Source: Planctomycetota bacterium | Lineage (GTDB): Bacteria; Planctomycetota; MHYJ01; JACPRB01 | Direction of reading: 5' to 3' | Assembly (NCBI GenBank): GCA_041482015.1 | Contig: JBGPCZ010000005.1 | Coordinates: 4,109 to 68,108, forward strand | Length of the DNA stretch: 64,000 nt | Shown: positions 19,140-24,365 of the stretch, piece by piece | How positions within the stretch are numbered: the first letter of the stretch is position 1 | Layout: every line of letters starts with the position of its first letter | Notes under the pieces: model-generated | Seen by the model: the letters and a program-made list of their open reading frames with translations, nothing else | Database searches by the model: none | Told to the model about the DNA's origin: nothing | Position numbers and translations under genes: made by a program

Positions 19140-22100
19140 ATGATCCGACTCGCCCTCCTCATCGGCACCCTCTGCGTCGTCGCCTCCCCCCCGCCGACGG
19201 GCGACGAACAGGTCCTGCAGCTGGCCAAGGAGTTCCTCGCCGGGCGCGCGACGCCGCGCCAGGCCATCGACATGTTCAACGAGAAGGGCGCCATCGAGCG
19301 CCTCTTCTCGGACGGCAAGCTCGACAAGGCGACCGAGTGGCCGAAGCTCCGCGAGCTCAAGCTCGACGGCCTCCGGCAGCTCAACGAGAGCCTGATGAAA
19401 ATGACCGTCCAGCGCGGGGACCCGCGCACCACCGTGACCCGGATGGATCACATGGGATCCTCGGGCACGGTCAACGACTACACCGCCGGAAGCGACGCCG
19501 ACCTCCGCCCCAACCAGATGTACCACGGCATCGAAGGGGACGTGGCCCGCGTGGCCCGCGAACTCGGGATCACGAACCTCGAGGCCTGGAAGATCAACAT
19601 CCTCGGCCGCACGGGCTACGGGTCGGTCGACAGCTTCCTCACGGCCATGCGCAACCCCGAGAAGTACCCGTTGGAGGGGGCGCTGAGGTTCCTGGACTAC
19701 AACCACTGGAAGAACAACGTCGCTGACGTCCTCGGCCCCGACGGGAAGTTCCGCTCGAAGGTCCCGATGACCGAGATCCTGCCGAACACCCCCCCGCCCA
19801 CCGCGATGGACGCCACCGATTACATGGCCGAGATGTTCACGCGCGCCACCGAGGACTTCCACAAGATGGGGAAGGTGAAGGACCTCTCGACCTCGGAAGG
19901 GATGAAGGAATTCCGCCAGCTCGCCAAGGACCTCTACAAGTACGCCGGCACGCGGGCGGTGGGCGAGGCCTGCCAGTTCGCCGGGATCGACATCACCCCC
20001 GAGATGCAGGCCATCATGGAGCGGGCGAAGCTCGTCAAGGTCGACCCGACCAAGGAGCTCGGCAGCGATCCCGCCGCGATCCGGGACGAGGCGGAGAAGC
20101 TCCTCGAGCTCACGAGGAACCTGCTCGACAAGTCGATCGAGAAGCGCGCATTCGAGATCGCCAAGAAACAGGCGCAGCTCCCCGGGACGATGACCCGCGA
20201 GAACATGGAAGGCTTCGTGGGCGTCTCGAAGGACAAGCTCCGGCTCGCCCAGGACATCGTCCGCGGCGGCCCCGAGGTGGAGAAGATCGTCAAGGAGCAC
20301 CTGATGCTCCAGGACGCCACCGGCAAGCTCTGGGAGGACGTCGACGCCCTGCGGCGCTACACGCTCGAGGAGATGCAGCGCACGAGGGACCCCGCCAAGC
20401 TGACCGACTACCAGAAGACGATCAAGAGCTTCCTCGATCGCATGCTCGAGAAGCTTGGCCGCGGGGGCGGTGCGGTTGCCGAGGGGGAGAACCCGAACCT
20501 CCGGAAGGTCGAGCCGGGCAAGTCCTCCCGCCGGCGCATCCCGGCGCTGGAGACGGAGAACCGCGGGGCCGCGCAGCTCGTCGAGCCCGCGGTCAAGAAA
20601 ATGAACGACGCGATCTCGACCGCGATCGAGCGCAGCCCCGGGAACGGCAAGACCTGGCTCCAGAACATGAACGAGGTGCTCCGCGAGATGCGGGAGATCC
20701 GGGGCCCGAAGTATCACGAGGCGCTCCTGAAGAAATTCGAGGAGTTCGATCTCCAGGTTTCGATGGAGCGCACCCAGGCGCTCCTCAAGTCCCTGCTGGA
20801 ATTCGAGCGGTCGCAGGTGCTCCACGCCCTGAAGGCGCAGTGGGAATCGTTCAGCGCCTCGGACCAGACCCTGATCTCGCGCGGCCGGTCGCTCATGAAG
20901 AGCCTGGTCGAGGTGAAGAACGGGCATGACGCGGTGGGAAAGCTCTTCACCGCGATGATGATCTGGGACATCGCCTGGGCCGCCTACGAAGGCGGCTGGG
21001 ACGGATTCCTCCTCGCCGGCGGGGGCGCCGTCGAGGGGATTGTCGAGTGGGAGGGGATCACCCTCTTCTTCTCCACGCTCGCGCCCGTGCTCCTGGAGCA
21101 TGGAGGGTTCGCGAACCTGGCCGCGCTCTCGGTCGGGATCGCGGAGCTGATCCCCACCTACATGATGCTCCAGATGGTCTCCGCCCTCCTGGTGAAGGGG
21201 CTGGAGAAGGCGGTGGACTGGCTCGTGTGGGACGACATCCACGACGCCAACATCCAGCGCTTCTACGACTACCATCCCCGTGCCGGCGACGATACCAAGG
21301 TCCAGGGCTTCTTCGACGTCAGCCGCGAAGCCTACGGCCTGACGCCCCAGTCCCTCTTCAGGGGGAACGCGACCCGGAAGGGCTACCCGACCCCGCAGGC
21401 CCTGCTCACCGCGGTCCGCAAACACCGCACCGACCTCCTCGCGGAGACGAAAAACGTCGCACAGATCGGCCCGGAGGGGATGAAGCTCTGGCGCGCGATC
21501 GAGGACAAGGCGCTCAAGAACTGGGGCGACGACGCGGCGCGCACGATGCAGGCGCTCAAGGACCAGTTCCAGGCGCTGCTTGGATCGGAACGCCGGGGCG
21601 ACATCGACGAGTTGGTCGTGGGCGCGCGCGCACCGGTCAGCTCCTGCGCGGCGGACATCGTCCAGGCCGTCGCGGAGTTCGAGAAGCGTGGAGATGGTGC
21701 GTGGAAGGCGCGGGTCCGCGCCCGGATTCTCGTGGCCGGAATCCCCGGGTCGGACGCCCGCCTCAAGGTCACTCACAAGATCCGGGAGAACGCCCAGGTG
21801 CAGGACGGTTCGCTCGATGGCGGCTTCAGCGAGGCGGACGTCGAGCCCGCGCGGCTCTTCCGGGTCGAGCGGAACGAGGTCGATTTCGATTTCGAGCGGG
21901 CCGGCGTCTACACCGACGATATCACGGTCGTCGATGACAAGGGCAACGTCCTGGCGAAGACGACGTTCGAACTGGGCGTCGGCTTCACCGGCGAGATCAA
22001 GGAGCTCTCGGTCGAGGTCGCCCAGGAGGAGCGGGGCCGCGGGGTGAGGGAGCTCCGCGCCGCGGAGGGCGCGTTCGTTCGAGTCCAGGACATGCTCGAG

Positions 22101-24365: not shown

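Follow-up and report, generated by a model that had tools for sequence, protein, structure and literature searches.

This analysis concerns a stretch of 64,000 nucleotides (nt) from a Planctomycetota bacterium (assembly GCA_041482015.1, contig JBGPCZ010000005.1, positions 4,109 to 68,108 of the forward strand), referred to below as the window, and in particular one gene at window positions 19140 to 24365 that encodes a protein of 1741 amino acids (aa), here called the big protein. Judged from its sequence, the product appears to be a genuine, Sec-exported, multi-domain protein of the cell-envelope type, and to found a tiny, extremely rare family limited to Planctomycetota. An earlier note on this DNA had described an exported, envelope-type protein whose architecture as a whole matches no described family, and both points stand. 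A recognisable array of non-thioester macroglobulin (MG)-like domains, followed by an immunoglobulin (Ig)-like and a DUF2135-like domain, is joined here to about 830 aa for which a set of ~5.8 billion proteins contains no relative beyond the family itself; the C-terminal half can be regarded as a new arrangement of known modules, while the N-terminal 830 aa are an orphan on present evidence. Tentatively, and with somewhat less than an even chance of being right, the big protein is read as an anchor-stalk-tip envelope protein that works with a small TPR lipoprotein encoded immediately upstream.

The features of the gene and of its partner are given below. AF2 denotes AlphaFold2 models, with their predicted local distance difference test (pLDDT) scores, and L006 the locus of the most distant homologue (~35% identity overall).

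19140..24365, forward strand: open reading frame (ORF) of 1741 aa, stop codon included; ATG at 19140, stop at 24363-24365, no interruption
19140..19196, forward strand: Sec-type signal peptide, aa 1-19; octanol-scale free energy (dG) -3.8; homologues alike in character
19197..20924, forward strand: helical N-terminal region, aa 20-595; no family match; all helix according to DSSP of a low-confidence model
19446..19511, forward strand: motif DHMGSSGT-x8-(G/E)SD(A/I)D(L/V)RP, aa 103-124; unchanged across four lineages whose overall identity is 41-75%
20925..21209, forward strand: hydrophobic Gly/Ala/Trp-rich block, aa 596-690; three candidate membrane helices at aa 602-620, 634-652 and 667-688
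21210..21644, forward strand: helical connector, aa 691-835; conserved, 47-58% identity to L006; no family match
21645..21980, forward strand: MG-like beta-sandwich 1, aa 836-947; seven strands in AF2, pLDDT ~65-80; Foldseek matches to A2M/complement proteins
22008..22325, forward strand: MG-like beta-sandwich 2, aa 957-1062; AF2; weak Pfam MG2 match (E 0.12, aa 987-1044)
22338..22676, forward strand: MG-like domain 3, aa 1067-1179 (repeat 1 of the earlier note); AF2 pLDDT 70-85; 48% identity to L006
22689..23024, forward strand: MG-like domain 4, aa 1184-1295 (repeat 2); AF2 pLDDT 72-85
23055..23375, forward strand: MG-like domain 5, aa 1306-1412 (repeat 3); AF2 pLDDT 37-68, low-confidence
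23388..23720, forward strand: MG-like domain 6, aa 1417-1527 (repeat 4); AF2 pLDDT 54-82
23730..23981, forward strand: Glucodextran_B-type Ig-like domain, aa 1531-1614; PF09136, E 1.1e-11, 44.9 bits against a cut-off of 27, full model length
23994..24362, forward strand: DUF2135/YfaP-like C-terminal domain, aa 1619-1741; homology to the C-terminal domain of protein P0003
18751..19122, forward strand: small TPR lipoprotein of 123 aa; TPR_19, E 5.8e-11; lipobox-like LLCAGC; ends 17 nt before the big ORF

Authenticity and export of the gene product

Long spurious ORFs are to be expected in high-GC DNA, and local GC across the big ORF is 65-72%, with antisense ORFs of 885 and 626 aa lying opposite to it; together with a homologous copy in L006 that is broken by a stop codon and a frameshift, this could be taken to indicate an artefact, be it an assembly chimera, a spurious ORF or a pseudogene. 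On the other hand, GC at the first, second and third codon positions of the big ORF is 0.64, 0.44 and 0.94, respectively, and the ratio of nonsynonymous to synonymous substitution rates (dN/dS) relative to P0002, a homologue of 1739 aa from the Planctomycetota metagenome-assembled genome (MAG) GCA_035292945.1, is 0.29 overall and below 0.45 in every segment beyond the signal peptide, from which it follows that the forward frame is the real one. A chimera fails as an explanation because P0002 is collinear with the big ORF (71% identity over 1720 aa, with a single one-residue gap), because the gene was found in 5 sediment metagenome runs from different studies, and because independently built unitigs of run X1 tile positions 18500-24800 at an even depth of 12-17. 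The single uninterrupted ORF that the earlier note had reported is thus confirmed, and an artefact is scarcely credible, appearing essentially excluded as far as sequence data allow.

The signal-like N-terminus is likewise present in all four homologues, hydrophobic though variable: a basic n-region and a hydrophobic core of 12-15 aa are kept across the four lineages while the sequence itself differs, and dN/dS within the signal peptide reaches 1.26 relative to P0002. The possibility that the big protein is itself a lipoprotein was ruled out, as Cys12 lies outside a lipobox, is absent from the homologues and is preceded by Leu at position -1.

The C-terminal array of beta domains

The AF2 model of the C-terminal half (aa 836-1741), built from a three-sequence alignment, has a mean pLDDT of 64, with values of 70-85 over most of aa 836-1300, and is all beta throughout, comprising eight domains, namely six sandwiches of ~110 aa, the Ig-like domain and a poorly modelled last domain (aa 1620-1741). 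Four repeats of ~116 aa had been proposed for this part of the protein; these hold as structural beta-sandwich units but not as sequence repeats, since their pairwise identity is only 10-18% and BLASTP yields no self-match at E<=10, and the count of four has to be raised to six. The two additional sandwiches (aa 836-947 and 957-1062) lie within what had been taken to be a ~370-aa linker, of which only the helical connector at aa 691-835 is left. When the model was compared to the PDB with Foldseek, the complement proteins C3/C4/C5, A2ML1, CD109, ECAM, Salmonella A2M and TEP1 led the matches with E-values of 1e-17 to 1e-12, which bears out the macroglobulin-like character of the array; the accompanying TM-scores are low, as expected of a flexible bead-string. 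The faint MG2 match of the second sandwich recurs in P0002.

Whole-protein and per-segment scans with Pfam, NCBIfam, PADLOC and PHROGs recovered only the Ig-like domain, together with sub-threshold matches to MG2 and DUF2135; no PADLOC defence model matched, and in PHROGs only the Ig-like domain did, the same stretch (aa 1531-1614) being matched by PHROG 11157. The Ig-like module of the earlier note is therefore real and can be named as Glucodextran_B. For the last domain, the direct Pfam match to DUF2135 (PF09906) is 13.8 bits (E 0.062) and does not reach the gathering cut-off of 22. In a protein search with the C-terminal half, however, the only match was P0003, a VIT+DUF2135 protein whose own DUF2135 match (46.5 bits at aa 851-896) lies inside the region aligned to the big protein: aa 1619-1713 share 36% identity with P0003 793-890 over 98 aa (pairwise E 3e-14, database-wide E 8.6e-6). 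The resemblance to DUF2135 that had been noticed previously is thereby strengthened, and the last domain is best described as DUF2135-like, with significant homology to a bona fide DUF2135 protein despite its sub-threshold Pfam score.

L006 keeps the six sandwiches, but where the big protein has its Ig and DUF2135 part, L006 has a linker rich in Pro, Glu and Thr and then a beta-rich domain of unrelated sequence. Because the sandwiches are retained and the C-terminal part is swapped, the C-terminus can be considered an exchangeable module.

The N-terminal helical region

The earlier note had assigned about 580 aa at the N-terminus to a mostly helical part without a recognisable family, and this description not only holds but extends over the first ~830 aa, for which no match was obtained in Pfam, NCBIfam, PADLOC or in PDB sequence and profile searches. 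The latter were run with the single sequence, with a three-sequence profile of aa 20-830 and with a four-sequence profile of aa 78-310, the best matches being apolipophorin-III at E 0.017 and another at E 0.77. For aa 1-870, AF2 modelling based on a two-sequence alignment reached a pLDDT of only 39, and the model was rejected as uninformative; Foldseek with this model returned nothing below E 0.2. On present evidence, the N-terminal ~830 aa constitute an orphan family.

Besides the motif at aa 103-124, which may form a metal- or nucleotide-binding loop, further invariant polar motifs are found in the N-terminal half (RFLDxNxW, AMDAxDYMxEM and AKDxxKYAG), and the connector carries RFYDxH..GDD..GQGFFD..RE...LTPQSLFRGN and GPEGMKLW. 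A motif scan of the big protein for HExxH, GxSxG, P-loop, CxxC, LPXTG and RTX-type sequences was negative in all cases, and PEP occurs once only, internally at aa 1144, with no C-terminal PEP-CTERM signal.

The hydrophobic block

The hydrophobic block that had been noticed in the middle of the protein is indeed present, at aa ~596-690. On the Wimley-White octanol scale, dG amounts to -1.7, -3.7 and -4.9 kcal/mol for aa 602-620, 634-652 and 667-688, respectively, as compared to -3.8 kcal/mol for the signal peptide. In each of the three full-length homologues these segments are favourable, and no other internal stretch clearly is; with acids protonated, the values fall to between -8 and -11 kcal/mol. 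The Kyte-Doolittle maximum of the block is 1.6. From K601 to K686 there is no intervening Lys or Arg, while 8 acidic residues and one His occur, and D610, E617 and D621 together span no more than 40 degrees of a helical wheel, forming an acidic stripe. An invariant Ile-Pro-Thr (IPT) kink sits in the middle of the third segment, and the low-confidence AF2 model places long amphipathic helices on either side of the block.

This is also the best-conserved stretch of the family, the best 25-aa window being 84% identical to L006. Such conservation argues for a functional role of the block, not for that of a passive anchor, and points to a membrane-interacting or interface-forming element.

Distribution of the family and its TPR lipoprotein partner

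Four lineages of the big-protein family are known, all of them from Planctomycetota-type sediment MAGs or metagenome contigs. A word-indexed search of ~5.8 billion proteins matched the big protein itself and P0002 only, whereas an exhaustive phmmer search with aa 1-1064 against 1.84 billion cluster representatives added two fragments, P0004 and P0005; a profile built from the four-lineage N-terminal alignment found nothing further in the 5.8-billion-protein set at E<=0.01, and neither phage nor plasmid records contained anything that tblastn could match to the big protein. P0004 and P0005 are two pieces of one gene from an 'uncultured Planctomycetales' MAG, present as L006, L007 and L009, and the fourth lineage (L008) is a metagenome fragment of 1954 nt with 48% identity over aa 1-499.

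The big gene of L006 (7899-12826) carries an in-frame TAA directly after the signal peptide (L006 position 7947) and a frameshift near aa 735, so that this copy is either a pseudogene or the product of an assembly error; L009, from JGI, is 100% identical to L006 over their overlap and hence gives no independent check of the breaks. An ORF of 127 aa lies downstream of the big gene in L006.

The TPR lipoprotein gene, which the earlier note had placed just upstream, is confirmed there by its TPR_19 match and its LLCAGC sequence, and a TPR gene directly precedes the big-protein homologue in all four lineages, with a product of 123-148 aa. These TPR proteins share a C-terminal tail of the form WDPxxGPxPxx(I/V)L(D/E). 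As regards the wider neighbourhood, whose conservation had been proposed as a check, only the TPR gene passes: neither the upstream GNAT gene nor the convergent LamG-kinase gene is kept beside the homologues, and a functional tie to either of them was dropped. An extracytoplasmic function (ECF) sigma factor and a Ser/Thr kinase are encoded nearby in both loci with enough context (this locus and L006); such genes are abundant in Planctomycetota, and for this reason their presence is given little weight.

Comparison with alpha-2-macroglobulins and other known systems

The structural matches of the C-terminal half raise the question of whether the big protein is a bacterial alpha-2-macroglobulin (A2M). 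Such proteins are defined by an array of ten MG domains, by bait and CUB regions, by a thioester-containing TED domain with a CxEQ motif, by anchoring in the inner membrane and by a partnership with PBP1c (PMC4498604). With bacterial A2Ms such as ECAM/YfhM and Salmonella SaA2M, members of the complement/A2M superfamily, the big protein shares tandem MG-type sandwiches in an exported envelope protein, and its best structural matches include 5a42, 4u48 and 4u4j (E ~1e-15). It differs from them in having six MG-like domains instead of ten, in an 830-aa helical N-terminal part that A2Ms lack, and in having neither a lipoprotein anchor nor a pbpC neighbour, no penicillin-binding protein (PBP) gene being found within +/-10 kb of the big ORF. 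The C.EQ thioester motif is missing from the whole protein; no helical domain of the TED type interrupts the beta array in the AF2 model, and neither TED nor any A2M family is matched in Pfam apart from MG2, at E 0.12. Bait and CUB regions have no Pfam match either, and AF2 shows regular sandwiches only, with low-confidence loops at aa 1357-1379. A protease trap of the A2M kind was ruled out, as there is no thioester or TED. Given the lack of C.EQ and TED, the merely weak MG2 match, the lack of a conserved lipobox and the absence of a nearby PBP gene, the big protein is not an A2M but is like one in fold only, of a non-thioester kind and outside the A2M family.

A second set of relatives is provided by YfaP/DUF2135 proteins and by VIT-(VWA)-DUF2135 proteins, with which the homology of the C-terminal ~100 aa to a VIT+DUF2135 protein is shared, although the domain of the big protein remains under the Pfam gathering score and its N-terminal context differs. 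In Escherichia coli, the DUF2135 protein YfaP is encoded beside the non-thioester macroglobulin YfaS. An MG array and DUF2135 therefore form a recurring association, which is here fused in one chain, as though a domain of the YfaP type had been added to an MG array of the YfaS type. YfaP is, however, listed without an assignable function (PMC12356324), and therefore the likeness to DUF2135 yields no mechanism; no functional study was found in the literature on DUF2135 and YfaP.

The insertion modules of AB and pore-forming toxins (the diphtheria toxin T domain, the colicin pore domain, Cry domain I and the TcdA/TcdB delivery region) provide another likeness, as they too combine a helical region containing a marginal, acidic hairpin with beta-sandwich binding domains, and in the big protein, too, a motif domain comes first, the hydrophobic block second and the binding repeats last. 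The analogy is confined to design, there being no sequence or profile similarity: a Pfam search with aa 581-710 gave zero families at E<=10, TcdA_TcdB_pore included. Finally, adhesins built from an anchor, a stalk and a tip, such as intimin/invasin and Ig-stalk adhesins, share with the big protein a membrane element, a run of Ig- or MG-like domains and an exchangeable distal binding domain, as well as a Big/Glucodextran_B-type Ig domain. In contrast to these adhesins, the anchor of the big protein would be helical and not a beta-barrel, a large additional N-terminal domain is present, and LysM, LPXTG and PEP-CTERM sorting signals are lacking.

Possible modes of action

In the reading that is tentatively preferred, the second and third helices of the block (aa 634-688) would enter the membrane as a hairpin after export, with the Trp/Tyr/acid-rich helix 1 lying at the membrane interface, whereby neither of the two large parts of the protein would leave the periplasmic or outer side. 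A stalk of roughly 25-30 nm, made up of the seven beta domains, would then display the variable C-terminal domain as a tip for ligand binding, the N-terminal helical domain would lie beside the membrane as an effector or regulatory module, and the TPR lipoprotein would bind the big protein as a tether, pilot or chaperone. This arrangement is favoured by the selection acting on the gene, by a signal peptide that is conserved in kind, by the all-beta array with its A2M/complement matches, the Ig-like domain and the DUF2135 homology, by the favourable octanol values and the strong conservation of the block, and by the TPR neighbour in four of four lineages; the exchange of the tip with retention of the stalk in L006 is moreover typical of a binding tip.

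Several points weigh against this arrangement. The hydrophobic segments are marginal, given their Kyte-Doolittle maximum and 8 acidic residues, and the flanks of the block do not clearly follow the positive-inside rule. Were the number of membrane-crossing helices odd, the beta array would end up in the cytoplasm. The block could also be a buried core, the N-terminal model being unusable at its pLDDT. Transmembrane anchors are usually poorly conserved, and here the block is the most conserved part of the protein. In addition, no RNA runs containing the big gene were found, and its carriers are known as MAGs or metagenome contigs without a cultured organism. It should also be considered that the anchor-stalk-tip reading and its main rivals share much of their evidence. 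Planctomycetota are bacteria with unusual envelopes in which giant proteins without an assigned function are numerous and orphan giants are common.

An unlikely but serious alternative is that the big protein is wholly secreted from the cell as a latent, membrane-inserting protein, either AB-toxin-like or pore-forming. The MG/Ig array and the variable C-terminal domain would bind a target surface, and a trigger, for example protonation of the acidic stripe, would cause the conserved helices to leave their bundle, enter the target membrane and form a pore or deliver the N-terminal domain, following the logic of the diphtheria toxin T domain, the colicins, Cry domain I and the TcdA/TcdB delivery region; in the producing cell, the periplasmic TPR lipoprotein would shield the block as TPR class II chaperones do for type III translocators. 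Several features of the block fit this proposal, namely a hydrophobicity that is marginal, as in latent insertion hairpins and not as in constitutive transmembrane helices, a run of 8 acids and one His without Lys or Arg that becomes far more favourable for insertion when protonated, three acidic residues on one helical face, and the extreme conservation of the block. The flanking amphipathic helices, a weak similarity to apolipophorin-III, the variation of the C-terminal binding domain, and the order of a catalytic-looking motif, a hydrophobic block and binding repeats would also suit an AB toxin. On the other hand, no toxin translocation or pore family is found in Pfam at E<=10, PDB profile searches reveal no catalytic domain, and the neighbourhood shows no secretion system, immunity gene or mobile-element context; relatives are missing from phage and plasmid records, and dN/dS is ordinary and without sign of an arms race. 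The fullest version of this idea regards the N-terminal 830 aa as a new membrane-insertion or translocation machine, in which a helical bundle hides an extremely conserved acidic-aromatic hairpin, the MG stalk and exchangeable tip deliver the bundle to a target surface, and a dedicated TPR lipoprotein silences it in the producer; this must be considered a long shot, and if true, Planctomycetota would possess a secreted protein of a new class, one that forms pores or delivers effectors.

Equally in doubt, though still deserving attention, is the view that the big protein is a soluble, periplasmic macroglobulin-like binding protein, acting like the non-thioester systems of the YfaS/YfaP type, for instance by sterically trapping or shielding a partner, with the block serving as a buried core or an oligomerisation interface of the helical domain. 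The fold of the MG array and the DUF2135 homology agree with it, as do the marginal transmembrane propensity of the segments and the conservation of a block whose richness in Gly, Ala, Trp and acidic residues is what close packing in a core or at an interface would call for. However, no bait region was identified and there is neither CxEQ nor TED; a stretch of 85 aa that is 60% apolar and contains no Lys or Arg is unusual in a soluble core, and both the coupling to the TPR lipoprotein and the swapped tip domain are left unexplained.

What would follow from each outcome differs considerably. If the block inserts, it would represent a new membrane-anchoring or membrane-attacking module, and DUF2135/YfaP, uncharacterised as yet even in E. 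coli, would be set in a functional context for the first time; if the block does not insert, the big protein is another rare hypothetical envelope protein.

A further proposal, which can be combined with any of the above, stems from the enzyme-like N-terminal region claimed in the earlier note, and holds that the N-terminal domain is a secreted enzyme of the nucleotidyltransferase fold that is targeted or anchored by the rest of the chain. It is quite improbable. The segment G106-S-x11-D119-A-D121 does fit the pattern hG[GS]x9-13DxD, resembles the SDIDL signature of minimal nucleotidyltransferases and is invariant in four lineages; yet the G[GS]x9-13DxD pattern is fitted once in the N-terminal part where ~0.7 chance matches per 1741-aa protein are expected from residue frequencies, and neither profile nor structural searches add support to this one invariant motif. 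PDB profile searches (E<=10) and Pfam alike bring up no nucleotidyltransferase, DxD is followed by RP(N/D) and not by a hydrophobic strand, the region is predicted as helix or coil without the needed beta-sheet (in a low-confidence model), and L006 lacks 31 aa right behind the motif.

Gene neighbourhood and other features of the window

The only sigma-70-like promoter match between positions 17800 and 24800, obtained by comparison to the consensus, is located on the forward strand at 18033-18060, just upstream of the GNAT gene, and GNAT, TPR and big ORF could be read as a single transcript. A string of genes at 24370-31124 on the reverse strand converges on the big ORF, the facing stop codons being separated by 4 nt. 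It encodes, in order, an ECF sigma factor, a FecR-type anti-sigma factor, a Spy/CpxP-like LTXXQ protein, a coiled-coil protein and a Ser/Thr kinase of 1211 aa that carries a LamG domain, an arrangement that looks like an envelope-stress signalling module. All four runs show an increase in read and unitig depth at 24415-24447, where many contigs also stop; on the reverse strand this stretch codes for IDDVRLYNRAL, close to the C-terminus of the LamG-kinase, and the pile-up would be explained if, as is assumed, this motif is common to many genomes in the samples.

Elsewhere in the window, a VIT-VWA gene at 9892-12246 on the reverse strand, which is 784 aa long in public assemblies, contains an in-frame TAG at 11779-11781. 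The codon is GAG (Glu) in both of the public assemblies that contain this contig (L004 and L005). Since the window departs from them at 35-38 positions over 25 kb, it is a third strain variant. A pair consisting of a PIN-domain toxin and a MazE-type antitoxin is encoded on the reverse strand at 31321-31975, and a DUF58 + VWA (Bat-like) gene begins near 34067.

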